Shown piece by piece: positions 14,099 to 43,187 of a stretch of 44,522 nt of DNA. The stretch comes from a virus, in the UHGV virus genome UHGV-0217460; one strand, written 5' to 3'. The translations under genes were made by a program, and so were the position numbers. Position 1 is the stretch's first letter. Every line of letters starts with the position of its first letter. The notes beneath the pieces were generated by a model that made no database searches, was not told where the DNA came from, and saw nothing but the letters and a program-made list of their open reading frames with translations.

Positions 14099-15265
14099 TT
14101 ACTGTGCGGTTACAGTCGTATGACCTGCGCTCAGCGCTTTATATGTGCTGTCGCACTCAACTACAGTGATAACCTGGCCGTTGGCCGCTGTGATATCGCT
14201 CTTGCCGTCCCATGCGCTCCAGTTTTTCACATTCTGTCCATACTCTACAGTGGTCTCAGAAGATGCCACTTTGTACTTATAGACGTTACCAGCGTTGCCC
14301 TTTTCCGGATTAACAGTAATCTTTGTGGTACCGCTGGATGATCCAGCTGTAGACTGTACAGTCAGATCGCCAAGAGTCTGAGATGCCCCAAATGTAATCA
14401 CAGAAATAGCATCCAGATACTCAGCAAACAGCACCATACCCATGATTGCGAATGCCTCAGATACAGCAGTGCTGTAGTTGCCCTGAGTATGGAAGCCGAT
14501 CAGATTGGTTTCGCCGGACACTGTATAGGAGAGCCCAGCACGTGCAAAGTCTGAATCGCTCGGATCAACATAGTAAAGAACAATGTTGTCTACCGGTGTA
14601 GCGATTACCTTGCCACGCGGGATCTCGCTGTCGGACAGCAGGAACACAGTATTAAATCCCATAAAATCTTTCATATACTGGAATCCGAACTGGTTCTGAA
14701 TAGTGATATTTGCAGCGCCAAGATACTCATATACGTCAAGGATGTTTACAAAGCCTGCAATACCATTCGGAATGGAACGATGCATGTTTTTGAATTTGTC
14801 CTCAACGCGGCCTTTTGCCATAGCAAGAGCCATCTGGAAAGTGTTCTCGGTAGAGGTAAGGGTACCGGTCTTAAGATAAGTGTAAAATCTTCCGGTTACA
14901 TCCGTCTGGAGCTGGAAGAGGAACTCTTCGTCTGTCAGCTCTACAGCCACATCGTAGCCATAAGTCTTGATTGCCTCGATGGATACAGCCTTTGCGTACT
15001 TCTCCACATCCATTTCAGCATACTCTTTTTCTTTTACATCGAATTTGGAGTACGGAATTTCCTCTCCCTCTGCGACCTTACCGCTCTGTAAAGTTCCGGT
15101 TGCATATTTGGATTTCAGAGTTGATCCCGGCTCTTTCTTTATCATTCTCAGCACGCCAAGGATTTCTGATAAGTGCTCCCAGTTACGTTCAAATCTGGTT
15201 ACAAAATCCACCTCTCTCGCGCGTACCTGAATATTTTCTGTTTTTATAAGATTTGCTTTTGCCAT
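14099..15265 (-). CDS. Major capsid protein with C-terminal Ig-like domain
   Basis: Lies after the scaffold gene. ATG MAKANL with RBS AAAGGG (the TTG at 15307 is less likely). C-terminal Thr/Ser-rich beta-rich region. Confidence 0.7.
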   Translation of the reverse strand: MAKANLIKTENIQVRAREVDFVTRFERNWEHLSEILGVLRMIKKEPGSTLKSKYATGTLQSGKVAEGEEIPYSKFDVKEKEYAEMDVEKYAKAVSIEAIKTYGYDVAVELTDEEFLFQLQTDVTGRFYTYLKTGTLTSTENTFQMALAMAKGRVEDKFKNMHRSIPNGIAGFVNILDVYEYLGAANITIQNQFGFQYMKDFMGFNTVFLLSDSEIPRGKVIATPVDNIVLYYVDPSDSDFARAGLSYTVSGETNLIGFHTQGNYSTAVSEAFAIMGMVLFAEYLDAISVITFGASQTLGDLTVQSTAGSSSGTTKITVNPEKGNAGNVYKYKVASSETTVEYGQNVKNWSAWDGKSDITAANGQVITVVECDSTYKALSAGHTTVTAQ

Positions 15266-15326
15266 AAAAGTTAAGCCCTTTCTGCCCGTAATTTGGGCGC
15301 CAGTCAAATCACTGGATTAACAACGA

Positions 15327-15962
15327 TCACTCAAACAGTGACATGTTGCTTGCAATTGCAGCCTGCCGTTCGCTTGCATCTTTGATGTCCATGATTTCTT
15401 TTTTGGTCATCTTTCCACCCGGATGATTATTGCGGGTTATCCCCGTTGTAAATCTCGCCTGATTCTGCATAGCGGTCTGCTGATTTTCATCAACAAATGC
15501 AGATGCATCGTCTTTCTTCATCTGATCCAGCAGATCATTAAGACCCAGAATCTTTCCATCCTTAAGCTTAAGACCAGCTGCTTTGATGTCTGCCATTACA
15601 GCCTTTTTAGCAGCCTCGGAAGAAAATTTAACTTCCTCCAGCGCAGATTTGAGTGAATCCGCAAAATCTCTTTCGTAGATTTTGTCTTTAAAGTCTTTCT
15701 CTGCATTTTCTGCCTTCTGTTTCCATGTAGCAAGCTCTGTTTTGATATTCTCCGGGTCGATTCCGTCAAAATTCTTGAGTGTAGCTTCTGCCGTTTCTGC
15801 ACGGATCTTCCAATTATCACGCTCATTTTCGACCTTTGACAGTGTTTTAGAAACTTCTCCGGCATTCTTGTAATGCTCAGACAATGCCTTTTTTACATCT
15901 GCCTGCTTATCTTCTGGAATGTCAATACCAAATGATTTGAGTGTTTCAATGAGTTTCTGCAT
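15327..15962 (-). CDS. Scaffolding protein
   Basis: Highly charged helical 211 aa with RBS AAGGAGG, placed upstream of the capsid gene. Confidence 0.7.
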   Translation of the reverse strand: MQKLIETLKSFGIDIPEDKQADVKKALSEHYKNAGEVSKTLSKVENERDNWKIRAETAEATLKNFDGIDPENIKTELATWKQKAENAEKDFKDKIYERDFADSLKSALEEVKFSSEAAKKAVMADIKAAGLKLKDGKILGLNDLLDQMKKDDASAFVDENQQTAMQNQARFTTGITRNNHPGGKMTKKEIMDIKDASERQAAIASNMSLFE

Positions 15963-16039: not shown

Positions 16040-16113
16040 TGGACCGCCAGGGATTTGAACCCCGGACCATCCGGTTATGAACCGGACGCTCTGACCATCT
16101 GAGCTAGCGGTCC
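16040..16113 (-). tRNA. tRNA-Met (anticodon CAT), phage-encoded
   Basis: 74-nt cloverleaf read by eye: acceptor GGACCGC/GCGGTCC, D-stem GCTC/GAGC, anticodon stem TCCGG/CCGGA with loop TTCATAA, T-arm GGGG-TTCAAAT-CCCT. G1-C72 pair argues for an elongator rather than an initiator. CCA is not encoded. Confidence 0.8.
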
Positions 16114-16116
16114 TAA

Positions 16117-16146
16117 AATGCCTGGCATGATTACATACCAGGCATT
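16117..16146 (-). terminator. Hairpin (terminator/processing site) between accessory unit and tRNA
   Basis: 9-bp stem aatgcctgg/ccaggcatt with a short U-tract on the minus strand. It directly abuts the tRNA 5' end. Confidence 0.4.
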
Positions 16147-16441
16147 TGCAAGTGGAAAACAAAAACTCTGCTTAGAGCAGCAGAATCCTCGCTGCGGTCG
16201 TAAGCCGCATTAACAGCCTATCAGCTACGAGGTGAAAGGAGGAAATTCAAGGCCAGTCAAAGCACTTGAATTTTGATCTGGCAATGCGCACGCCGGAAAT
16301 CGCATCCGCTTTTCAACCTCCAGGGAAAGCCCCCTGTTTATATTAAGGACGTGCGCGGGAGGTGTGTGTAAATAATAAGAAAATCAATCATCCTGCACAT
16401 TTTTAGTGTACCACTTATCTGTATGTCAGTTATCCACACAT

Positions 16442-16984
16442 CTACAGCATATCTCTAAGCTTATCAACATAACGCTTCACAAGGTCTCGCTCTTCGCGAC
16501 ATTCTGCGTCCTTTGACATATCCCCGATTTCTGCTGTAAGTCCATCCAAATGTTCCTCTAATGCGGCCAGCATCTTACGCTTACAGTCCTCTGATTTGCC
16601 GGATCGATAGCTCTGCTTTTGCGTCATGTAATCATCATAAGCATCTCGACCATCGCTCCGGCTGTAATGTCCACGCACATAATGCTCACCGCGGCGCATA
16701 TAGGATGAACCGCGGTCATAATCTGGCATTCGGCCATCAGAAGCGCTATAACGCCCCATATTATCACGTCCGCGGCGCTCGCTGTAGTCACCTACACGCA
16801 TCTGTTCCAAAACGGTCATATAATATTCACCCTTTTTATCCCAATACTCTGTGTTTTTAATGTCTTTATACATATCAATCAGCTTAAAAGCCGTGTCCAG
16901 ATTGCCGGAGGTGAGGCCTTTTTCAGCAATGTTAGATATCTCATCTTCAATACGTGCACATAAATCTTTAACATCTCTCATCAT
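16442..16984 (-). CDS. Hypothetical protein with Arg/Asp/Tyr-rich low-complexity core
   Basis: ORF with low-complexity segment RGRDNMGRYSASDGRMPDYDRGSSYMRRGEHYVRGHYSRSDGRD. Part of the terminator-bounded unit. Confidence 0.5.
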   Translation of the reverse strand: MMRDVKDLCARIEDEISNIAEKGLTSGNLDTAFKLIDMYKDIKNTEYWDKKGEYYMTVLEQMRVGDYSERRGRDNMGRYSASDGRMPDYDRGSSYMRRGEHYVRGHYSRSDGRDAYDDYMTQKQSYRSGKSEDCKRKMLAALEEHLDGLTAEIGDMSKDAECREERDLVKRYVDKLRDML

Positions 16985-16993
16985 CCCACCTCC

Positions 16994-17416
16994 TTATGCT
17001 ACCCGTGTAACCACAAGATTTGCGTTTGCCACGGTGATAGCCTGGGTACTGGTATTCTCTACCGCAACATCAAAGCAGCATCCGCGCGGAACATCAATAA
17101 AGATTCCGGCAGATACATTATTAAACGATTCTACGGCGGTCGGTGTGGATATCATCTGAGAGGATAAGACTGGTTCGCCGCCGATTGCAACAGCAAGAGA
17201 AATTGCTCCCGCCGTCCCTCCGGTTGGTACTGCGATATTTGCGGAAAAGCTCACAAAATAGCGGGCCTTACACTGGTTCGTCATTCCTCTGAGAGTAACT
17301 ATTCCGCTGCCCTCCCGGTGCTGCACACATGCGGTCCCTTTTACCGCTGTGTTGGTATATACTACATTTCCATTCGCTGCCACTTCCTGAGCGGCAACAG
17401 CTACATATTCAGCCAT
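16994..17416 (-). CDS. BclA C-terminal-like (C1q/TNF-like jelly-roll) domain protein
   Basis: ATG at 17416 with RBS AAGGAGAA. ~140 aa, Ala/Val/Thr-rich beta pattern ending VVTRVA, resembling the BclA exosporium C-terminal domain. Confidence 0.45.
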   Translation of the reverse strand: MAEYVAVAAQEVAANGNVVYTNTAVKGTACVQHREGSGIVTLRGMTNQCKARYFVSFSANIAVPTGGTAGAISLAVAIGGEPVLSSQMISTPTAVESFNNVSAGIFIDVPRGCCFDVAVENTSTQAITVANANLVVTRVA

Positions 17417-17550
17417 ATTGTTTTCTCCTTTTTCATATCGCAAAAAGGCAGGACTGGGCCTGCCGATTTGCGTAATACCGGCTCTGGGCCGAACATCTGA
17501 CCATATTGCCGATGTCAGGAAAATGGTCAGAAGATACAGATATGAGGTTG

Positions 17551-18324
17551 TCAGCAGTTGCATCCAGTGTTACAGCCATAGTATACGTTCGGGTTCGGCA
17601 CCTGGTAAGCCGGAATCGGTGCCGGATTGATCGCATTAATGAGCTGCTGGGTCTGTGCTGACATAGCGGTAGTAAGCAATGCACTCTGACGATCCTGAGA
17701 TGCAGCACGTCTGAGATCATTGTTTTCAGCCTGGAGGGAAGAAATCTTCTCGTTGCACAGGTAGTCCAGAATGGCTCTGGTTCCGGCGTTCTGGCTGTCG
17801 ATAATGTCTCTGGTGTTGTTGTTCATGGTGTTCTGGAGTGCACAGGTGTTCTGCGCCATGTTGTAATTTACACCCTGGATTGCTTCCCGGGTCTCGCAGC
17901 AACACTGAGCAAGCTGCGCCTGGAGTGCGTTAGTGTTCTGCATGTTGGCTACAGTATCGGCATTAATAGCCTGCTGGATGCCGAAACCAGTCTGCATGAC
18001 GTTTGTATTGATGCCGTTGAATCCGGTAAGCATACCGTTATTCATGGCATAGAAGCCATCACACAGGCCGCTGGACAGGCCGTCCAGTTTGCTGATAACT
18101 GCCTGGTTGTCAAAGCCGCGCTGGATCGCAGAATCGGTGTATGCGCTTCCGGCTGCTCCACCTCCGCCGTTTCCCCAGCCATTGCCGTTGCCCCATCCGC
18201 AGAACACAAACAGGAACAGGATAATGATCCACCATGCGCCATCTCCGCCCCACATGCCATCATTGTTGCGGTTATTGGTTCCGGTAGCTGCCGCAATATC
18301 GGCTAAGCTATAATTTCCATCCAT
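17551..18324 (-). CDS. Membrane-anchored Gly-rich, Q/N-rich, Cys-rich protein (YjcZ-like TM/Gly motif)
   Basis: Segment WWIIILFLFVFCGWGNGNGWGNGGGG (TM plus Gly-run) and C-terminal QCCC...YYGCNTGCNC. RBS AAAGGAG. Confidence 0.5.
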   Translation of the reverse strand: MDGNYSLADIAAATGTNNRNNDGMWGGDGAWWIIILFLFVFCGWGNGNGWGNGGGGAAGSAYTDSAIQRGFDNQAVISKLDGLSSGLCDGFYAMNNGMLTGFNGINTNVMQTGFGIQQAINADTVANMQNTNALQAQLAQCCCETREAIQGVNYNMAQNTCALQNTMNNNTRDIIDSQNAGTRAILDYLCNEKISSLQAENNDLRRAASQDRQSALLTTAMSAQTQQLINAINPAPIPAYQVPNPNVYYGCNTGCNC

Positions 18325-18373
18325 TTTGATATCTCCTTTAATTTTTATTTACATTCCTGGCCAGGATAATGTA

Positions 18374-18589
18374 CTACTTCATTCCACGCAGCATGCTCTG
18401 GAACTGCTGCGCCATCTGCTGCACCTGATTAAGTTGTGCCTGTGATATCCGTCCAGATTGCAGCATCTTCTGTACTTCTGCTTTAGGATCCCCTTTAAAG
18501 CTTTGTTTAAACTGCATAAACTGCTGCATCATTTGCATAGGGCCGTTGCCCTGCGCCCTTCCAAGCATCTGAAATAGTGGGTTACTCAT
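18374..18589 (-). CDS. Small Gln/Met-rich protein
   Basis: 71-aa ORF with RBS AAAGGAGG. Low-complexity Q/M-rich sequence. Confidence 0.45.
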   Translation of the reverse strand: MSNPLFQMLGRAQGNGPMQMMQQFMQFKQSFKGDPKAEVQKMLQSGRISQAQLNQVQQMAQQFQSMLRGMK

Positions 18590-19073
18590 TTGCTGTACCT
18601 CCTTTTACTCTGCGGTTTTCTGTTTTGGCAGAGGTTCCACCAGGCTCCACATTTGCAGAAAATGAGTTGAGCCTATTTAAAATTTCGTTATATTTGTTAA
18701 AAAGATCTTGGTACTCTTCTCTAGTTACATACATGTCAGCCATAACATTTTCTTGCCGCTTCTGCGGCATTTTACCGTTAATTTCATGATATTCAAAGAT
18801 GCGAAGCGGCTGAGGCATCCCAGATACGTCCGTAGATTTGATATAAAATCGCTCTGATTCACTGTCCATCAGCAGCACACTTGATCCCGGTGCTACAAGA
18901 TAGGACTTAGCGCCTGTCTCGCCCTGTACCCATAAAATACCCTGATTATTTGCTGGCGCTGGTATTGACAAAGGTTGTGGCGTGGGCTGATATTGGTTCA
19001 TTTGTGCAATTCTGTCCTGGTATGCCTGATATGGCTGATACATGGGGGCATTTGGATATATTGCCATGTTCAA
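18582..19073 (-). CDS. Hypothetical protein with Q/P/Y-rich N-terminus
   Basis: RBS GGAGGG. First gene after the upstream terminator. Confidence 0.5.
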   Translation of the reverse strand: MNMAIYPNAPMYQPYQAYQDRIAQMNQYQPTPQPLSIPAPANNQGILWVQGETGAKSYLVAPGSSVLLMDSESERFYIKSTDVSGMPQPLRIFEYHEINGKMPQKRQENVMADMYVTREEYQDLFNKYNEILNRLNSFSANVEPGGTSAKTENRRVKGGTANE

Positions 19074-19153
19074 TTCCCTCCAAAAACTTTAAAATGTCAC
19101 GGTAATCGGTTACTATAGGTATTTCTATTTCGTCTTCCATACCTGTATTTTTG

Positions 19154-19190
19154 CAAAAAAAATAAGTCTCTGACAGTTCGTCAAAGACTT
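19154..19190 (-). terminator. Rho-independent terminator (minus strand)
   Basis: Stem aagtctctgac/gtcaaagactt (10 of 11 bp) followed on the minus strand by a U-run of 8. Confidence 0.55.
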
Positions 19191-19395
19191 AATAAAGTAG
19201 CACACGTGTTATTTTTGTGTTTACCCGGCGGCTGATCCGCTTTGCAGTGGATAAGCTCACATTCATGTTTTCTGCGCAGATCTCCATTGGCACGCCTGCG
19301 GCTCGGTATTCAAATAAAGCTCTTTCCTCTGGTGTAAAATTCGCAAGTTGCCGGAAGCGGTTCAGCTCCGGTACTGTAAAATCATACACTTTCAA
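19189..19395 (-). CDS. Small sigma-70 region-4-like HTH protein (putative transcriptional activator)
   Basis: Segment FTPEERALFEYRAAGVPMEICAENMNVSLSTAKRISRRVNTKI looks like a sigma r4/LuxR-type HTH. TTG or GTG start with a weak RBS. Confidence 0.4.
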   Translation of the reverse strand: MKVYDFTVPELNRFRQLANFTPEERALFEYRAAGVPMEICAENMNVSLSTAKRISRRVNTKITRVLLY

Positions 19396-19406
19396 GATAA
19401 GATTTA

Positions 19407-19748
19407 TTACCCCTCACTTTCTATCGGTTCATATGGCAGAGCCAAGCACCTGTTATAAAGGTCCTCACCTGTTCCATTACCTCCAAGTGTCTTGTATGGC
19501 CGAAACATATACTCAAGATTGTCTCTGTCTTCCAAGGTACAATATTTCCTTTTTAAATAAAACGTACAAGCCTGATAAAGCCGATCATGGAGAAGTGCCA
19601 GAACTCCCGCATTAATAGCGTTTGTCCTAGCACGTTCCGTCTTCAGCTGTTTAGCCAATTTGTGATATGCTCGTGAAAGTACTACTGATATAAGCCCAAG
19701 CAGCCATGATACCCAGTTTGCTGTTATGTACTGTATAATCATTTCCAT
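19407..19748 (-). CDS. Membrane protein with BhlA/UviB-like N-terminus
   Basis: ATG MEMIIQY with RBS AAGGAG. The N-terminal pattern MEM..QYI....W.SWLLGL.. resembles the BhlA/UviB holin-like family. Confidence 0.35.
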   Translation of the reverse strand: MEMIIQYITANWVSWLLGLISVVLSRAYHKLAKQLKTERARTNAINAGVLALLHDRLYQACTFYLKRKYCTLEDRDNLEYMFRPYKTLGGNGTGEDLYNRCLALPYEPIESEG

Positions 19749-19758
19749 CGTATACTCC

Positions 19759-20154
19759 TTAGTTATGATCTTTCTCCCAGTAATATATAGGAATTTCTCC
19801 TCCACTATCCCAGGTATCGTATATATGGCCGTCCTGCACACAAACAACATGGCCATCAATGCAAAGTATGTACGTCCCATGCTGATGCTCCGTGCAAAAA
19901 TCAGCTACTGTATAGATATTTTGGGTATGATCGTCTATCATATGCCGTCGATATCCCTTTTCTTTTAGATATGCGCCCCATACGTAATTAGCACTTGGCA
20001 TATCCGACAGCATACAAGCCTTTACCATGATGCCGGAGAAAACCGTTTCCCAGTCCTGCCCTGTTGCCTTACAGATGGCCCGGATAACGCAGTCACCTAC
20101 GCGCTTACCGGCTGGATTCGGATTGTAATACTCCCACTCAACATCATATTTCAT
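19759..20154 (-). CDS. Cys/His-rich hypothetical protein downstream of MuF
   Basis: 131 aa with GDCVIRAIC...C..H.H...C..GH motifs. Abuts the MuF stop. Confidence 0.4.
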   Translation of the reverse strand: MKYDVEWEYYNPNPAGKRVGDCVIRAICKATGQDWETVFSGIMVKACMLSDMPSANYVWGAYLKEKGYRRHMIDDHTQNIYTVADFCTEHQHGTYILCIDGHVVCVQDGHIYDTWDSGGEIPIYYWEKDHN

Positions 20155-20158
20155 AGCA

Positions 20159-21376
20159 TTATCCTTTCTTCAAATACGCATATCTTTTTGCCGCTCCTCG
20201 CGCCTTTGCCGCCTGTTCTCTTCCCCATTTGGCAATTCTGAGGCGGTCATCCAGTAGGCGTAAGTCATTGGCTTTGCAAAAATCATTGTACGCCCGGTTC
20301 TGCCTCTGTAAAAGATATGACTTTCGATCTAACTCCTCTTGTAGCTCTATCCTCAGTGCATCATCATTGCAGGTGTCTACAGCCGTTTGCAAGCCCATAA
20401 CCATTTGCTTTGTCTTTCTGATTCTTCGCTCTAATGCTCGCTGCCTCTGCTCTAACTTTTCCAGCCTCACATTATCCTCTGTCTCTATATCCTTATACGG
20501 GTTGTTTACCCCGTCACCGGGTCCAAAGCTGTGGCGGCAGTTCCAGCCACTTAACCCTTCGCCTGTCCCGTATCCAGTCACAGAAAATGGCGGGTATCGT
20601 TTATCTTGCCCCGTCCGGCTGTAAAACTGTCCTTGCCACCACAAATGGTTACCTGGATTCTGCCCGCCGTCTCCCGTTCGCGCCCCAATATGTGCCGACA
20701 CAAGGATTATATCCCACTCCTGTTCCTTCATGCGCTCCATAGATATATCACCGGCCGCCTGGGCGATTCCGGTGCGAACCGCTCGCGCCGTGGCCGTCTC
20801 AATCGTGTCTCTATGGCCCGTTGGGTATTTCACAGTTACGCCATTCTGAGCGATAATGTCAACCGCTTCTCTTACTGCCTGTGTGTATGATACAGCGCCG
20901 GTCATAACTTTATGATAAGCGTTATCGCACTCGCTTATAAAAAGGCTCTGCGCGGCTTCTGCGGTTGTCCTTGTCATGTTTGACCACTCACCTACAGTCG
21001 CTTCGTAATCTCTTTGCAAGATCCGCGTAATTACAGGAGATAGTTCCAATGCTTCCTCTGTAATCCCGGCCGAAGCATACACAGAGTTGTCATACTTAAC
21101 CGCTTTTATCTCTGCCTCTTCCATCGCCTCGGCTATCTCTTTTTTCTGTAAGTGTGTGTGCTGTGCAATCTCCTGCATGATATCCTGTAAAAGATAACCA
21201 GCGTCTTGTAGCACCTGGATACGCCAGCGGTCTGAGGATGTAAATAAATAGTCTTCTCCACGCCCCAAACGAATCATGACTGCTTCTATGAGTCGTCCAA
21301 TGATATAATTATGCAGTGATGATGCTATAGCTTCACTGCCCTCTGCTACCCTTTTTAGATAATCTGGTGTCAGCAT
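20159..21376 (-). CDS. Head morphogenesis protein (Phage_Mu_F/SPP1 gp7 family)
   Basis: Conserved MuF motif GWNCRHS with a coiled-coil C-terminus. Lies after the portal. Confidence 0.75.
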   Translation of the reverse strand: MLTPDYLKRVAEGSEAIASSLHNYIIGRLIEAVMIRLGRGEDYLFTSSDRWRIQVLQDAGYLLQDIMQEIAQHTHLQKKEIAEAMEEAEIKAVKYDNSVYASAGITEEALELSPVITRILQRDYEATVGEWSNMTRTTAEAAQSLFISECDNAYHKVMTGAVSYTQAVREAVDIIAQNGVTVKYPTGHRDTIETATARAVRTGIAQAAGDISMERMKEQEWDIILVSAHIGARTGDGGQNPGNHLWWQGQFYSRTGQDKRYPPFSVTGYGTGEGLSGWNCRHSFGPGDGVNNPYKDIETEDNVRLEKLEQRQRALERRIRKTKQMVMGLQTAVDTCNDDALRIELQEELDRKSYLLQRQNRAYNDFCKANDLRLLDDRLRIAKWGREQAAKARGAAKRYAYLKKG

Positions 21377-21386
21377 GGTCTTTCAC

Positions 21387-22082
21387 CTACTCTTCATCAA
21401 ACAGCCTCTTTTCATCTGGCTGGGCTTCCTCAACCATAGCCTTTGCGTCTCCTAAAGCTTTTACTGCCTCAGGTAATGTTTTATATGATCCAAAGTAATA
21501 TCTCTTCTTGTTTCTTCTAATTTGCACCCTATACGCTCCCTCACTATAATAAATGCCCTTATATCCTGTCTTATTGTCTTTTCTTAGTCCCTGGTTTAGA
21601 CATTGGGTTTCGTTGTCCGCCCAGCGGCAATTATCTGGTTCATAATTTCCATTTACGTCTATTCTGTCGATAGACAATCCCTCTTTATATCCATTTTTTA
21701 TAGCCCAGTCAAAGAACTTTTTCGGATCATTTAACCATTCCGTACAGATTTTTATTCCTCTTCCTCCATACTTTTCATAGTCTTTATTTTGGGGATTATT
21801 GCATCTCTGCTTCATTCCCTCAAAAACTTTTCCAAGTTTTGTACGAGAATATCCGTGGGTTTTCGCCGCCGATTCTTTTTCATAGTTATAACAGCCACAG
21901 CTTAAAGTACTTCCATTTCTTAAATCGCCATGCCTAACGATTGTGATATTTCCACAATCACATTTACATTTCCATCTCCGAATCATTTTGCCTGTTTTAC
22001 TATAAATTGGTTCGGCTTCTTCCATAACTACAAGCTTTCCATATCTTTCACCTTCAAGATGTAATCTTATCTGATTTTTCAT
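21387..22082 (-). CDS. HNH homing endonuclease with AP2 DNA-binding domain
   Basis: HNH_3-like segment SIDRIDVNGNYEPDNCRWA and AP2-like GYKGIYYSEGAYRVQIRRNKKRYYFGSYKTLPEA. N-terminal Cys cluster. ATG at 22082 with RBS (the GTG at 22118 is possible). Inserted between portal and MuF. Confidence 0.65.
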   Translation of the reverse strand: MKNQIRLHLEGERYGKLVVMEEAEPIYSKTGKMIRRWKCKCDCGNITIVRHGDLRNGSTLSCGCYNYEKESAAKTHGYSRTKLGKVFEGMKQRCNNPQNKDYEKYGGRGIKICTEWLNDPKKFFDWAIKNGYKEGLSIDRIDVNGNYEPDNCRWADNETQCLNQGLRKDNKTGYKGIYYSEGAYRVQIRRNKKRYYFGSYKTLPEAVKALGDAKAMVEEAQPDEKRLFDEE

Positions 22083-22191
22083 ATCATGTTCTCCGTTTAT
22101 ACGTATGCACTTATTCACGTATATTGTAGCATATTTTATTCTTTACGTCTATACGTATTTATGGTATATTCATATTAAAGGAGGTGCCATA

Positions 22192-22338: not shown

Positions 22339-22351
22339 ATCCCTCTTTTTT
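22326..22351 (+). terminator. Terminator after RHH gene
   Basis: Stem agaggga/tccctct followed by TTTTTT. Also serves the convergent portal gene end. Confidence 0.55.
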
Positions 22352-23780
22352 ATTCATCATCAAATAATCCTTTTGCTTGTGTATTTTCTGCTTCTTTTGT
22401 CATTGATACCGCCTCATCTTTCGTCATGCCCTCGAATTTTGTAAAGTATAACCACGCCGGGACCTTTCCTTGCATTACGTACTGCCACCAGCGGCTGCGA
22501 TCTGCTTCGCGGTCATAAAGGATATCACCAAAATCATAGGTCACATCATATGTACCGACAGGTGCCAGGCCATACAGGTCCGCATACACGTTAAGCGCAT
22601 ATAGTGTATCATCCAGGCATGACTCCAGCTGATCACGCACGTCCTTAATGAATTGTACGGTACGCTGCTGATCTGCTTCCACTCCTGTAGCCGTCTGGAT
22701 ACCCGATGACTGGTTAAATACAAAGTACCCATTTGCAAATCCGGCCTTGTATCCTATCTGACTTAACAGATTGTTGATGCCTTTTACTCTGGTATCCGTA
22801 TTAAGCTGAGGGTTGATCTCCTGATAAAACTCTTTTTGATCGTTGCCAAACACATTTTTAACATAGTGCGGAAGTCCCTTCACATCTGCAGGGCCTCTGT
22901 GCTTAATGTTTTTTCCACTTTCATACAGTAATCGATCATCCGCCAGTATGATTTTCTGACTGTCAAAAATCTCACCCGCATTCCGGCTGTATGCTATATC
23001 AAGGTCTTTCAACTCTTCCAGTGCTTCTCTGAAGATTGGAAGTCCCATAGGAGAAGATATGTCTACGTTATTGGCTTGCGGTGTGCGCAAGATGCCAAAC
23101 ATAGGCTTATCAAGTGGCTCTCCTGACGCCTTAAGGATTGGCGGCGTGTCTGCTGCCATGTCCGCCCATTTAGTCTGTGTTAGCGGTATCGGATCTCCTA
23201 TACTGTCCGTTGATTTTGAAACATATGCCCGATTGCTGATATAGTACGGGCGCAACATTGCACCGTCCATCTCTGTCTCAACAAAGCGATGATGTTCTAA
23301 CCTGGTGTACCACTTTTTCCCAGACTGATAAGTATCTTTAAATATAATCTCCCGTACTCCCAGGTTGTCATAGTCTACCAGTAAGACATCCGCAGGAGTA
23401 AAAACGTCTAGGTTTGTGCCGTTTGGCTTTAAAAACACAGTGCCGTAAGCGCATCCGTACTCCACCCAGTCACGAAGCTTAGAATAAATCAAATCTATCT
23501 GCTGCTGCAACCACTCTGCCCGGGCACTGCCTTCCAAATGTATACCGATACCCAAGGTTACCAGGCGGGCCGTCTCTGAACAAAGGGCTTTTGCAAAATT
23601 AATTGTTTTTATGCCTTCTTCATCATCCAGCCACTCCGGATTGCCGTGGTAGACATCTGCGCATTGATTTATGGCCTTTTCCATGTCTGGTGATACAATA
23701 GATTGAACATTAAAAGCCTTTTCTGCCTGCCGCTTAAATATCATATTAATCCACCTTTTTACCGTTGATAATATACCCAT
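22350..23780 (-). CDS. Portal protein (SPP1 gp6-like)
   Basis: 476 aa, in the portal position after the terminase. The start at 23780 overlaps the terminase stop. An internal ATG at 23744 has a better RBS (AAAGGTGG). Confidence 0.75.
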   Translation of the reverse strand: MGILSTVKRWINMIFKRQAEKAFNVQSIVSPDMEKAINQCADVYHGNPEWLDDEEGIKTINFAKALCSETARLVTLGIGIHLEGSARAEWLQQQIDLIYSKLRDWVEYGCAYGTVFLKPNGTNLDVFTPADVLLVDYDNLGVREIIFKDTYQSGKKWYTRLEHHRFVETEMDGAMLRPYYISNRAYVSKSTDSIGDPIPLTQTKWADMAADTPPILKASGEPLDKPMFGILRTPQANNVDISSPMGLPIFREALEELKDLDIAYSRNAGEIFDSQKIILADDRLLYESGKNIKHRGPADVKGLPHYVKNVFGNDQKEFYQEINPQLNTDTRVKGINNLLSQIGYKAGFANGYFVFNQSSGIQTATGVEADQQRTVQFIKDVRDQLESCLDDTLYALNVYADLYGLAPVGTYDVTYDFGDILYDREADRSRWWQYVMQGKVPAWLYFTKFEGMTKDEAVSMTKEAENTQAKGLFDDE

Positions 23781-25408
23781 TATGCACTATTCCCCCGTCT
23801 CTCCCACAGCGATTCCGTAGCGTAACGGGCCGCATCAATGAGATGGTTATTTTTGTCTGGATAGCCGCTTATGATGTTGCCGTCCTTGTCTCGCTCGTAC
23901 TCATACTCTTTAAATTCCTTGCAAGTGTTCGGCGTTCGGTTCGGATCCATGACAAATTTTTTCCCTTGTAACCACTTCATTGAGTACTCAATGCTGCCAG
24001 GTCCTTTATGTGCTGCTCTGGCTGGTAGCCCTGAATCTCTGTAATCCTCAACAGATTTTGGCTCTGCACTATCGCATGTTATAACATAGTCGTCATATTT
24101 GCGCCGTTTGATTTCGGCGGCTGTCCAGCTGTTCTTTTTCTTGTTTTCACAAATCTCGTCTATAAAGTATATGGTTTCACGCGCCGAATCGTAATATATC
24201 CTTACAAAAGCATATTTGTCTGGGTACCATCCCCAGTCAACGCCTTGATATATGCGATCCATAATTTTAATTTCTTCATCTGTGATAGTGCGCTCTTCGA
24301 TAAATTCAAAGACATTGCCACCGTTTCCGTTTGCTTCTCCCATATACTCATTTTCGTATGCACTCGGATTAACCTCTTTTAGATGTTCTGCATCGTTAAG
24401 GAACTCCTCGCCCAGCCAGTCAGCAGGGACATCTTTATATGTACTTCGCATAACAACGGCACTTGCGTTTTTAAACTCTGCCTCTACAGTATATTTATTG
24501 GCCCAGTTGATCTTGCTTCTCGGTGGGTTAAATGACTTAAACTTATACGCCTTATCACCGCCACGTATAGCGGACTGCTGGATGCTTCTGACCTCTTCGG
24601 GTCCGGCGAACTGGTCCAACTCTTCAAACCATACGATACCGATATATCCAAACTTCGGTTTAATCGATTTGATCTTAATCGGGTCATCTGCACCTCGAAA
24701 ATAGATCTTTTGCCCGGTAGGTTTGTATGTGATCTCAAAGGGAGATTGTTTGAATTTAAACTCTGCATCAAGGCCAAGCTTTGAGATAGCCCATTGCAGC
24801 TGCGCATACACAGAATCTTTTATAGTGTTACCGACTTTTCGCAGCACAAGCGCGTGCATATCAGGATGCTTTTTTATCAGCTCCGGGATAATGCATGATA
24901 TACAAGACGATTTCGAAGATCCTCGCCCGCCTGGAAGCACATATTCCGTATGCATGCCGCGCCGGATATCGCGAATCATCGGGTGGAATACATCTGCCAC
25001 CACATCAAGATCAATATGATATTCTTTTGCCGTTCTGGCTTCCTCTTCTGCCTTCTGCTGCGCTTCTTTTTCCTCTTTTACGGCTATAGCTTTCTCCAAA
25101 TCAGACATGGCTTTAAGCTGTTCGGAAAACGCCGGGGCAAATCCAAACGAATCCTTTACTTCCCCCCGTGCGATCATGGCGCGGCGCTTCTGGATATCAG
25201 CAAGAGACATGGTGTCAGTACCGTTGCGCCTATCAAGTTCTGCCTGTTTGTCCGCTATATAGGCCAAAACATCAGCATTCTTCAACAGTCTGCATCCTTC
25301 CTGTTCTGGCTTCTTATATCCAGCTTTTCTCGCCGCATCAGTTGCATTCCCGCCGTTTTCTATGAAGTTTTTCGCGAACGCTTCCCGCTTCGGCGTAAGC
25401 TCACCCAT
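23780..25408 (-). CDS. Terminase: N-terminal small-subunit-like (Terminase_2 HTH) domain fused in frame to large subunit ATPase/nuclease (PBSX XtmB-like)
   Basis: N-terminal ~110 aa TPKREAFAKNFIENGGNATDAARKAGY is TerS-like. It is followed by Walker A VLPGGRGSSKS and the TerL body. There is no stop between them. Confidence 0.7.
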   Translation of the reverse strand: MGELTPKREAFAKNFIENGGNATDAARKAGYKKPEQEGCRLLKNADVLAYIADKQAELDRRNGTDTMSLADIQKRRAMIARGEVKDSFGFAPAFSEQLKAMSDLEKAIAVKEEKEAQQKAEEEARTAKEYHIDLDVVADVFHPMIRDIRRGMHTEYVLPGGRGSSKSSCISCIIPELIKKHPDMHALVLRKVGNTIKDSVYAQLQWAISKLGLDAEFKFKQSPFEITYKPTGQKIYFRGADDPIKIKSIKPKFGYIGIVWFEELDQFAGPEEVRSIQQSAIRGGDKAYKFKSFNPPRSKINWANKYTVEAEFKNASAVVMRSTYKDVPADWLGEEFLNDAEHLKEVNPSAYENEYMGEANGNGGNVFEFIEERTITDEEIKIMDRIYQGVDWGWYPDKYAFVRIYYDSARETIYFIDEICENKKKNSWTAAEIKRRKYDDYVITCDSAEPKSVEDYRDSGLPARAAHKGPGSIEYSMKWLQGKKFVMDPNRTPNTCKEFKEYEYERDKDGNIISGYPDKNNHLIDAARYATESLWERRGNSA

Positions 25409-41753: not shown

Positions 41754-42176
41754 TTTTGACAATGTATCACCTCCTTATAGTGCTTTTTAGTTGTGTTTAC
41801 CTTGCGTTTGTGATATGCTATATATGCCTTTTGGCAAGGAAAGGAGCTGGTGTCTATTGACCAAACTTTTGTCTTTGCCTGTTCCCTTTGCTTCTAACCC
41901 GCCCACACTGAAACCTCGACAGTCAAAACAGGTCAAAGGCGGCTCTGGTTGTTTTGTCAGCGATTAGGCATATTGCAGAACCAAGACTGCTAAAGTGACA
42001 AGGTGCTTCAAGAAGCATTTGGCACCATCATATGTGGCTCATGCCTGCAAAGTACATAGGGTAAACAAATTTGGAAAAGAACTGTTCAGAATGGTGCTCT
42101 GGGCAGTTTCTTTTTGCAGTTTTGCGTCAAAAATTGCATTCCTGACAAAAAACTTTATGCAAAAGTACAATTATAC

Positions 42177-42356
42177 TTGCGTATAGTTCGGTTTAGTGAT
42201 ATACTGTGAGTGTCAATCGAAGTAATCAACTTCACCGAGGTATTTCTTTTGCTTAGCTCGTTCCACCGAACTATGTGTATACTATAACACGGTAAACCGA
42301 ACTAGTCAATAGTTTTATCTCAATTTTCTAAACTATTTTTTGAGGTGCGAACTATG
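42177..42356 (+). promoter_or_regulatory. Lysogeny promoter/operator region with 4 copies of a CCGAACTA(T/G) operator-like motif
   Basis: TTGCGT-17-TATACT promoter (42177-42206) with an operator copy in its spacer. Further copies at 42266, 42297 and 42347, the last overlapping the XRE RBS and start. Confidence 0.5.
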
Positions 42357-42737
42357 TATGAAATTTTTAAAATGCTGTGCGAAGAAAAAGGTATAACGAC
42401 ATACCGTTTCTGCAAAGACACCGGGGTAAACTCCTCAACAATAAGCACATGGAAAACAAAAAATTCCGTATGCAGTTCAAGGCTCGCCGGAATAGTTGCC
42501 AAATATTTTGGAGTGTCCGTTGATTATGTACTTACAGGAAAGGAGGAGGTTGCCGTTGCACAGGAAGAGCACATTGATTTAAAAGCGGAATTTAACCGCA
42601 TCAAGAAACTGTTGGAAAGCGGGGAAAACGCACCGTTGTACTTTGACGGGCAACCCGCAGATCAGGAGAGCATCAACTTGCTGCTCGATCAGATCAAGAT
42701 ATCTGTTGCGCTTATGGAACGTATGCGCAAAAAATAG
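42354..42737 (+). CDS. XRE-family HTH transcriptional repressor (phage cI-like)
   Basis: Cro/C1-type HTH ITTYRFCKDTGVNSSTISTWKTK...VAKYFGVSVDYVL. RBS GAGGTG. Paired with ImmA downstream. Confidence 0.8.
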   Translation: MYEIFKMLCEEKGITTYRFCKDTGVNSSTISTWKTKNSVCSSRLAGIVAKYFGVSVDYVLTGKEEVAVAQEEHIDLKAEFNRIKKLLESGENAPLYFDGQPADQESINLLLDQIKISVALMERMRKK

Positions 42738-42749
42738 GAGAAGTGGAAC

Positions 42750-43187
42750 ATGACAGATGCAAAAAGGACAGCCGCAGAGCTATCAAATATGTATCATACA
42801 AATGACCCCATTGATCTCGCCGATCATCTGGGAGTATATACACAGGTTGGCCCTTTGGGTAAGATATACGGATGCTGTTTAACCATAGCGGGTGAACGCT
42901 TCATTTATATAAACAGCGATCTGGATAAGTCTACACAAAAGATGGTTGCGGCCCATGAGCTGGGTCACGCCGTAATGCATCAGGAAGATTACTTCTTTTT
43001 TAACTGGATGCCGGACAGCTTGCACCGGAACCGTGCAGAGATCGAAGCGCATACTTTTGCTGCTGAGTTGCTGGTACCGGACAGCGTTGTGTTGGAGCAT
43101 CCAGGTTTTACTTTAGCGCAGCTATCCGCATTAACCGGATACGCAGAAAATTTCTTAAAATTCAAAAAAGTAGGGGGAGTATTATGA
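42750..43187 (+). CDS. ImmA/IrrE-family zinc metallopeptidase (anti-repressor protease)
   Basis: HEXXH motif AHELGHAVMH, size ~145 aa, directly downstream of the XRE gene. Confidence 0.8.
   Translation: MTDAKRTAAELSNMYHTNDPIDLADHLGVYTQVGPLGKIYGCCLTIAGERFIYINSDLDKSTQKMVAAHELGHAVMHQEDYFFFNWMPDSLHRNRAEIEAHTFAAELLVPDSVVLEHPGFTLAQLSALTGYAENFLKFKKVGGVL

Follow-up and report, generated by a model that had tools for sequence, protein, structure and literature searches.

A portable accessory operon with its own putative activator gene lies among the head genes of the phage genome UHGV-0217460

Introduction

Between the genes for the MuF protein and the scaffold protein of the virus genome UHGV-0217460 lies a group of small genes, and the question raised by this locus is what such a group is doing inside a head-gene module. 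The whole 44,522 nt sequence, called the window here, had been interpreted once before from its nucleotides. This original prediction described positions 19073-16442 as an independently transcribed unit that is bracketed by terminators, preceded by a small sigma-70 region-4-like regulator gene, followed by a tRNA-Met gene, and devoted to spore-coat or exosporium proteins. Its gene coordinates and its statements on amino acid composition proved correct when open reading frames (ORFs) and residues were counted, and the MuF and scaffold neighbours were confirmed by matches to Pfam PF06152 and phrog_194, respectively.

Here we report that the region, termed the cassette, is a portable accessory operon that stands outside the core head machinery. 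It comprises seven co-inherited genes (sig68, p131 and g1 to g5; Table 1) and is neither head-assembly machinery nor a spore-coat module. With a confidence that falls a little short of even, we read the window region as one copy of a self-contained operon of Firmicutes siphophages that carries out a very late, membrane-associated function of the lytic cycle. The signature gene g3 occurs in thousands of gut and rumen sequence clusters, yet no cassette protein is functionally annotated. So widespread a block, travelling with its own regulator, is likely to matter to these phages, and with its function established a recurrent part of the dark matter of the gut virome could be annotated. Testable handles are available in a confidently modelled peptidase, in a regulator with a conserved terminator, and in a cultured carrier, Butyrivibrio phage Ceridwen.

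Results

Seven genes are inherited together

A total of 327 loci with a g3 homologue were drawn from IMG/VR contigs, GenBank phages and a set of one genome per species. Their ORFs were labelled by iterative hidden Markov model (HMM) searches seeded with the window proteins, which covered 247 loci at first and later all 327. Many loci are truncated by contig ends, and thus the co-occurrence counts are lower bounds. Alongside g3, these loci carry g1 in 303 cases, g4 in 255, sig68 in 254, g5 in 247, p131 in 226 and g2 in 212. The co-inherited set is sig68, p131, g1, g2, g3, g4 and g5, with the g1-g3 pair as its near-universal core. The unit originally drawn as 19073-16442 was therefore too short, since the real co-inherited unit reaches upstream to p131.

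The arrangement of these genes is strongly conserved within lineages. Specifically, 65 of the 67 complete loci of close relatives have the order p131-sig68-g1-g2-g3-g4-g5, and the order sig68-p131-g1-g2-g3-g4-g5 is found in 33 of the 44 complete rumen (Ceridwen-type) loci. Other lineages show the permutation g1-g3-g4-g5-p131 or reduced sets around g1-g3. The presence of p131 follows that of g2 (both in 130 loci, neither in 46, just one in 20) and of g5 (both in 144 loci, neither in 35).

Each of g1 to g5 and p131 also matches a PHROG family at E-values from 7e-26 to 6e-63, and judged by these matches the cassette ORFs are real genes rather than chance ORFs. The PHROG families involved have no annotated function. 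Furthermore, neither single sequences nor profiles of diverse homologues of p131 and g1 to g5 gave a significant match in Pfam, NCBIfam, PADLOC or the PDB. The families are large: at 90% identity g3 forms at least 7999 clusters, p131 5138 and g4 2858, and the g4 family has 762 representatives at 50% identity. Homologues with a named source come from Lachnospira, Eubacterium ramulus and uncultured gut phages. Ceridwen is the only cultured phage with g3 among the homologues found, and it was observed only in lytic growth, with no integrase or excisionase found (PMC7372960).

In the scan of one genome per species, the g3 motif was present in 136 genomes. These belong to Lachnospiraceae, Oscillospiraceae and Christensenellaceae, to metagenome-assembled genomes (MAGs) of Bacilli and Erysipelotrichaceae, and to one Mycoplasmatota MAG; a small number come from bins placed in Collinsella, Prevotella, Muribaculaceae and Melainabacteria. 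Contigs from such non-Firmicutes bins carry a g3 homologue with parts of the cassette, as seen on a 557-kb scaffold of a Prevotella sp. MAG (L283) and in Melainabacteria (L310 and L321) and Collinsella (L254 and L300) MAGs. These bins may be binning errors, or they may reflect a wider host range.

The cassette changes its position in the genome

The MuF-scaffold junction is one of several places in which the cassette is found. It lies there in 88 loci. In about 100 others the nearest recognised upstream gene encodes a lysin, tail fibre or tape-measure protein, and/or the nearest recognised downstream gene is an integrase gene on the opposite strand; flanking genes were left unlabelled in 94 loci. 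In orientation the cassette always agrees with the adjoining late genes, and wherever the upstream gene can be recognised it is a same-strand late gene. The window phage itself is temperate, with an integrase fragment (127-513), an endolysin gene (924-1724) and repressor and ImmA-like genes (42345-43187).

Phages with homologous major capsid proteins (MCPs) differ in where they keep the cassette. It is inside the head module in Dulem virus 35, whereas Ceridwen, Dulem virus 33 and MT835551 have it about 12-17 kb away. Dorea phage DO134P1, whose MCP is 53% identical, lacks the cassette and has only two small ORFs between MuF and scaffold, and this junction in Flavonifractor phage Chenonceau is taken up by small, unrelated regulator genes. 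Because phages with related capsids carry the cassette there, elsewhere or not at all, the MuF-scaffold junction is an accessory-DNA hotspot, with the cassette among its mobile occupants. The variable genome position, together with the absence from DO134P1, supports the view of the cassette as an accessory unit, as had been proposed. That proposal was to be given up if all related phages carried the genes as a fixed part of the head module with no terminators around them. Nearly all close relatives do have the genes, yet terminators accompany them, and more distant ones lack or relocate the cassette.

Lambdoid phages are known to carry morons, accessory units with a transcription of their own that are inserted between conserved late genes, and mobile accessory blocks in phage late regions are in themselves of a known kind. 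The cassette resembles morons in that it occupies a junction that phages with related capsids leave short or fill with other small genes, appears to have transcription signals of its own and changes its genome position. It differs from them in being far larger, with seven co-inherited genes, in having its own regulator, and in carrying its conserved terminator before the payload and after the regulator gene rather than behind the payload. The gene content, the regulator-terminator architecture and the abundance of the cassette are undescribed as far as literature and database searches reach.

Other insertions affect the same module in relatives of the window phage. Genes for HNH-type homing endonucleases and other inserts of 0.8-3 kb break it at several points, including sites inside MuF (L013 and L015), between g2 and g3 (L007 and L084) and between sig68 and g1 (L009 and L018). 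The MuF gene is split in some loci. A comparison in which g3 appeared more conserved than structural genes was dropped, since the 80 close loci used had been chosen by g3 similarity and the comparison is biased.

A conserved terminator separates sig68 from the genes that follow

A strong hairpin directly 3' of sig68 has the features of an intrinsic terminator, with a stem of 12-13 bp, a folding free energy (dG) of -15.7 kcal/mol (z -5.8) and a run of eight U. Like the other two hairpins of the region, it is much more stable than shuffled versions of its sequence. Of 82 distinct gaps between sig68 and g1, 75 (91%) contain a hairpin with five or more T behind it, compared with 1% of shuffled sequences. 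Where p131 follows sig68 instead, the same is true of 48 of 64 distinct gaps (75%; 3% of shuffles). The stems have unrelated sequences in different lineages, which argues for selection on the terminator structure itself. The annotation of Ceridwen also places a predicted terminator at this point, after sig68. The conservation of a terminator after the regulator gene supports the view that the cassette is a separately controlled unit.

Two further hairpins are present in the window. The one between g3 and g4 (dG -19.1, z -4.5), which the original prediction had not listed, is followed by five U and may be an attenuator; terminator-like sites are found in 55 of 115 distinct g3-g4 gaps (48%), versus 3% of shuffles. 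The other, which had been taken as the downstream terminator of the unit, is also stable (dG -24.2, z -5.2), and its U tract is short, with a tail of four U that is partly paired and an end only 3 nt before the tRNA. For these reasons it is not a canonical terminator, and the terminator scan, given the short U tract, made no call there; it may act as a weak terminator or in RNA processing. A terminator-like site within 150 nt after g5 is present in 14% of loci. Thus, of the proposed bracketing, the upstream terminator is strong and conserved, whereas the downstream hairpin is real without being a terminator of the canonical type.

sig68 is a putative activator of the cassette

The window sig68 protein matches the Pfam families Sigma70_r4 and Sigma70_r4_2 weakly and below threshold (E 0.02-0.03), and matches phrog_1190, annotated as 'RNA polymerase sigma factor', at 8e-5 and the HMM of its own family at 1e-22. 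When 39 diverse family members were compared, 22 matched Sigma70_r4 (best E 1e-12) and 21 matched Sigma70_r4_2, with further matches to GerE/LuxR (6 of 39) and Mor (4 of 39). These results bear out the sigma-70 region-4-like gene that had been noted upstream of the unit, and this helix-turn-helix (HTH) is the sole domain of sig68. The gene is directly upstream of the cassette in most loci, a synteny that holds across very divergent phages.

Proteins of the LtrA family (Ltr superfamily) are small phage proteins that resemble sigma region 4 alone, and one tested member, from phage 37, controlled its cognate terS promoter (PMC3753634; Quiles-Puchalt et al., 2013). Similarly, sig68 is a small region-4-like HTH protein that is encoded immediately upstream of its presumed target operon. 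By analogy with LtrA, sig68 is a putative activator that would switch on the adjacent cassette. LtrA-type genes precede terS and switch on the whole late operon, whereas sig68 lies within or at the end of the late region, before an accessory cassette and with a terminator after it.

Tandem direct repeats were noticed between the sig68 terminator and g1 in several loci (L023, L024, L038 and L048; also L106 and L159). Examples are AAGTCATAGAAT, present 3-4 times, and AAGTTGC or TAATTGC, each present three times. Repetition of a 7-mer at least three times occurs in 9 of 144 terminator-g1 regions and in 0.8% of shuffles. These repeats could be binding sites for the regulator, and they are enriched over shuffles; as a general explanation they were rejected, since they are not widespread and are absent from the window.

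p131 is predicted to be a minimal papain-like peptidase

A confident structure model of p131 has a papain-like fold of the C39, staphopain or Josephin type. Residues C22, H102 and D113, the presumed catalytic residues, are invariant in 32 diverse homologues and in 121 further ones. On the strength of this model, p131 is confidently predicted to be a clan CA (papain-like) cysteine peptidase. None of the 32 family members matched C39 or another Pfam family, and no sequence match was found in the PDB. Unlike C39, staphopain and Josephin-type peptidases, p131 is a minimal stand-alone protein of 131 aa with neither an ABC (ATP-binding cassette) transporter nor a prodomain, and no gene matching an ABC exporter was noted near the stand-alone p131 gene in the loci inspected. 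In the inspected regions of two cultured phages, Geobacillus phage GBK2 (L328) and Bacillus phage Tsamsa (L329), the p131 gene stands among small unannotated genes and the rest of the cassette is absent. Records of Prevotella Lak megaphages also include a p131-type minimal peptidase as a stand-alone gene.

Features of g1, g2, g3 and g5

The signature protein g3 begins with an acidic tail, which is followed by one hydrophobic segment from about residue 25 and by a Gly/Trp-rich linker. The remainder consists of a helical Q/N-rich region with an invariant CCC, a conserved P-x-P-A-Y motif and a Cys/Gly-rich C-terminus. Residues C141-C143, P238, C255 and C257 are invariant in a diverse alignment. 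The protein contains 10 Cys, 35 Asn and 29 Gly, and the family mean is 11 Cys per protein. Apart from one weak match of the coiled-coil type, to the ZorA tail (E 0.0011; PADLOC), g3 had no match in the PDB, Pfam or NCBIfam. A likeness of g3 to the YjcZ family had been proposed, and a Gly-rich stretch does lie beside the hydrophobic segment. However, YjcZ-type proteins are tiny sporulation membrane proteins, whereas g3 has 257 aa and a large helical Cys-rich domain; the proposal is not supported, as no match to the family was found in NCBIfam (E up to 1) or Pfam (E up to 0.1). The cassette often follows lysin genes, and a role of g3 in lysis was therefore considered and set aside, since the window has an endolysin gene of its own and no positive evidence for such a role was found.

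The other core protein, g1, is rich in P, Q and Y at its N-terminus and ends in a coiled coil; its small conserved core is rich in beta structure and shows the pattern WV.GE..AK.Y.VAP..SV.L.DSE..Y.KS.D.SG.P. Searches of Pfam and the PDB with g1 returned nothing above coiled-coil noise. Its ATG start codon at 19067 is closer to the family consensus than the TTG at 19073. Of the 71 residues of g2, 17 are Gln and 10 are Met. In g5, helical ends surround a low-complexity centre of Arg, Asp, Tyr and Gly (20 Arg, 23 Asp and 14 Tyr in the protein) with the family motif SYARGRGRNA-RDSMGRYS, and no informative Pfam or PDB match was obtained. By inspection, none of g1 to g5 has a signal peptide, the single hydrophobic segment of g3 described above being set apart.

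g4 is probably a jelly roll, but not a BclA relative

Similarity of g4 to the C-terminal domain of the exosporium protein BclA was one of the arguments for the proposed spore-surface function. The low-confidence structure model of g4 is all-beta, and its structural matches include ectodysplasin (8.6), BAFF (8.4), cerebellin (8.2), the tips of cyanophage tail fibres (8.1), the BclA C-terminal domain (8.0, at 15-16% identity) and ExsFA (7.3), along with microvirus capsid proteins. Among viral models, Foldseek matched g4 to small phage proteins, to proteins with C1q or collagen repeats, and to tail fibres. A TNF/C1q-like jelly-roll fold, comparable to those of BclA and Pgp3 (PDB 1wck, 3twi and 4jdn), is thus a reasonable assignment for g4, as far as the model goes. 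Phage fibre tips, Pgp3 and lectins show this fold just as typically; the assignment identifies a fold class and is not evidence of BclA ancestry or function.

The distinguishing features of BclA are missing from g4, which has neither sequence homology to it nor an exosporium-targeting N-terminus. No Pfam match to BclA was found, nor any PDB match at E up to 10 with either the single sequence or a profile. Furthermore, a collagen-like GXX stalk is absent from g4, whose 140 aa are all jelly roll, and from the best 150 of the 762 family representatives (54-196 aa). The family has four invariant Cys, which to our knowledge are not BclA features. What stands of the BclA likeness is therefore the predicted fold, without the homology or the stalk. 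In some lineages g4 is replaced by a different family of about 130 aa (L003, 7905-8324; L086, 6813-7196; L087, 6812-7216). Proteins of this replacing family begin with a Cys-rich stretch, such as MACSQYTNGGYGCGGC, ahead of a body rich in beta structure; they align poorly with g4, at 18-20% identity, and have no Pfam match.

Discussion

A possible role late in infection

The architecture of the cassette suggests the following course of events. Transcription of the upstream late genes would reach sig68 last and stop at the terminator. The sig68 product would then activate a promoter before g1, as LtrA-type activators do at the terS promoter, and the result would be a 'very late' class of expression in which g4 and g5 are damped by the internal hairpin between g3 and g4. 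The products may assemble inside the infected cell as a membrane-associated complex anchored by g3, with the coiled coil of g1, g4, g5 and g2 as candidate members and with at least one component processed by p131. TNF-like jelly rolls generally trimerise, and g4 is therefore probably a trimer. Our best guess for the purpose of such a complex is a step of the lytic cycle that takes place at the cell membrane late in infection. A fuller version, which appears rather doubtful to us, would make the cassette a very widespread phage system that has so far gone unrecognised, in which the sigma-region-4-driven operon gives rise, as the host dies, to an assembly that is anchored in the membrane and perhaps cross-linked through Cys or Gln. 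In that version g3 would be the anchor, joined by the g1 coiled coil, TNF-like g4 trimers, g5 and g2, all matured by p131, and the assembly would serve a lytic step that has no described counterpart.

Several observations weigh against a membrane-associated complex under the control of sig68. In the window lineage the sig68 terminator also precedes the scaffold and capsid genes, whose transcription would thus need read-through, antitermination or a further promoter, and read-through at this site would weaken the regulatory cascade. A scan of the window sequence did not find a good sigma-70 promoter upstream of g1, and the TATAAT of relatives is too near the start codon to serve as one. Positive charges are almost lacking on either side of the short hydrophobic segment of g3, so that topology cannot be predicted, and membrane insertion is likewise uncertain. 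The g4 model has low confidence, with a predicted local distance difference test (pLDDT) value of 58.8 and a predicted template modelling (pTM) score of 0.55. Homologues of p131 occur without the cassette in Bacillus Tsamsa-like phages, in GBK2 and in Lak megaphages, and the peptidase may therefore have an independent role. We also considered that p131 might cleave g3 after a Gly-Gly before the hydrophobic segment, and rejected this candidate because the motif is not associated with the presence of p131 (odds ratio 1.7, p 0.41).

Competing explanations

The main rival of this late membrane function is that the products are accessory components of the virion. They might decorate the capsid or form fibres, with g4 as a trimeric knob, or they might be internal or ejected head proteins that are packaged with MuF and matured by p131, like phage P1 Dar or the T4 internal proteins; we judge either form to be unlikely. 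The constant late-gene orientation, the MuF-scaffold position in the most sampled lineage and the fold of g4 all fit virion proteins, the lack of signal peptides is as expected for cytoplasmic assembly, and a dedicated peptidase recalls head maturation. Identity among close relatives is 80% for g2, 77% for g4 and 83% for g5, against 78% for the MCP. However, structural genes would not usually have their own regulator and a conserved terminator ahead of them, and in many phages the block is found after the lysis genes beside the integrase gene, far from the head genes. Moreover, a phage with a related capsid does without the cassette, g3 has a hydrophobic segment of the membrane type, and the proteins have neither a structural annotation in PHROG nor similarity to known decoration or internal proteins. 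The position between lysis and integrase genes in many temperate phages is also the classic site of conversion genes, which brings up a moron that would act in lysogens through its own regulator and alter the host membrane or envelope, for example in superinfection exclusion or defence. The terminator would insulate such a module from late transcription, and both the temperate nature of the window phage and the membrane-type segment of g3 agree with it. We nevertheless consider it improbable. No PADLOC defence model was matched, save for the weak coiled-coil match to the ZorA tail, and seven co-inherited genes are many for exclusion. The terminator is upstream rather than downstream of the cassette, which does not allow simple lytic read-through as in a lambda moron, and the cassette is present in Ceridwen, which grows lytically and has no reported integrase.

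The proposed spore-surface module, in which a GerE-like regulator would have the products placed on the coat or exosporium in the mother cell of the host, is very improbable. Cassette products share with coat proteins an abundance of Cys, Gln, Tyr and Gly and a lack of signal peptides, a minority of the regulator homologues match the GerE/LuxR model, and many of the hosts are Clostridia. Beyond this composition and the fold class of g4, one that is common to many unrelated proteins, nothing supports a spore-surface role. No cassette protein is similar to coat, exosporium, YjcZ or Ena families in Pfam, NCBIfam or the PDB, the g4 family has no collagen-like stalk, and the cassette adjoins late lytic genes in the same orientation. 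Furthermore, the hosts include Butyrivibrio fibrisolvens, the host of Ceridwen, which is not known to form spores and whose phage has been seen only in lytic growth. Lachnospira, Erysipelotrichaceae, Mycoplasmatota and the few non-Firmicutes bins likewise represent groups that, for the most part, are not known to sporulate. The analysis thereby removes an attractive yet unsupported link between prophages and the spore surface.

A variable RNA slot and other features of the locus

The tRNA was confirmed to have a CAT anticodon, but it is not tied to the cassette, as had been implied by its description as part of the unit. It lies 330 nt beyond g5 in a gap between g5 and scaffold that holds one to three tRNAs in 50 of 60 related loci. 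The tRNAs in this slot represent at least ten anticodons (CAT, Tyr, Gln, Thr, Asn, Val, Leu, Ile-TAT, Ser and Cys). The same gap of the window contains the structured RNA RAGATH-21, which scored 79.8 bits against a gathering score of 70.3. In L014, L036 and Dulem virus 35, RAGATH-21 has the same location, and in each case the scaffold gene lies downstream of it. It is absent from loci in which the cassette is elsewhere (L001, L166, L211 and L084). Because this RNA is missing where the cassette has another position, and because tRNA identity varies, the two RNAs are part of a variable slot that precedes the scaffold gene, and not of the cassette. A literature search on RAGATH-21 found nothing.

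The window tRNA has the base pairs G1-C72, C4-G69 and C5-G68, and presumably resembles a lysidine-modified tRNA-Ile2 more than the elongator tRNA-Met that was originally named. A relative (L012) has a tRNA-Ile(TAT) in the slot, and ATA accounts for 30% of the Ile codons in the sampled genes.

Table 1. Position of the cassette genes, RNA elements and neighbouring genes in the window
Feature	Coordinates	Strand	Remarks
Portal	22350-23780	-	
HNH endonuclease	21387-22118	-	Between portal and MuF
MuF	20159-21376	-	Pfam PF06152, E 3e-70
p131	19759-20154	-	131 aa; predicted stand-alone papain-like (clan CA) cysteine peptidase
Variable insert	19407-19748	-	About 113 aa; N-terminal hydrophobic helix; phrog_4105 match
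sig68	19189-19395	-	68 aa; stand-alone sigma-70 region-4-type HTH protein
Intrinsic terminator	19163-19191	-	Directly 3' of sig68
g1	18582-19067	-	161 aa; phrog_21718
g2	18374-18589	-	71 aa; Gln/Met-rich helical protein; phrog_22984
g3	17551-18324	-	257 aa; signature protein; C-terminus YYGCNTGCNC; phrog_16490
Terminator-like hairpin	17447-17464	-	Between g3 and g4; possible attenuator
g4	16994-17416	-	140 aa; stand-alone protein, predicted TNF/C1q-like jelly roll
g5	16442-16984	-	180 aa; phrog_28802, 6e-63
RAGATH-21	16285-16357	-	Structured RNA; Rfam RF03097
Strong hairpin	16117-16146	-	3 nt before tRNA
tRNA	16040-16113	-	Anticodon CAT; ARAGORN and Rfam
Scaffold	15327-15962	-	phrog_194
Major head protein	14099-15307	-	phrog_544

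According to the ORF list of the window, every gene of the region is on the minus strand. The variable insert upstream of sig68 was called as an ORF at 19407-19880, in which residues 56-152 give the phrog_4105 match. Because this gene is restricted to a few close relatives (L005, L006 and L009), it is not a constant member of the cassette.

Outside the region, the 542-aa ORF at 23780-25408 that is called as the large terminase has its matches to small-terminase families in residues 1-122; those to large-terminase families begin at residue 135. It may be a TerS-TerL fusion, or a frameshift or stop codon may have been missed. A FuFi-1 RNA (Rfam RF02986, 134.7 bits) lies on the plus strand at 41953-42112, near the repressor and ImmA-like end of the prophage, and a second copy was found at 15418-15641 of an unrelated contig from a cassette-bearing phage (L211).

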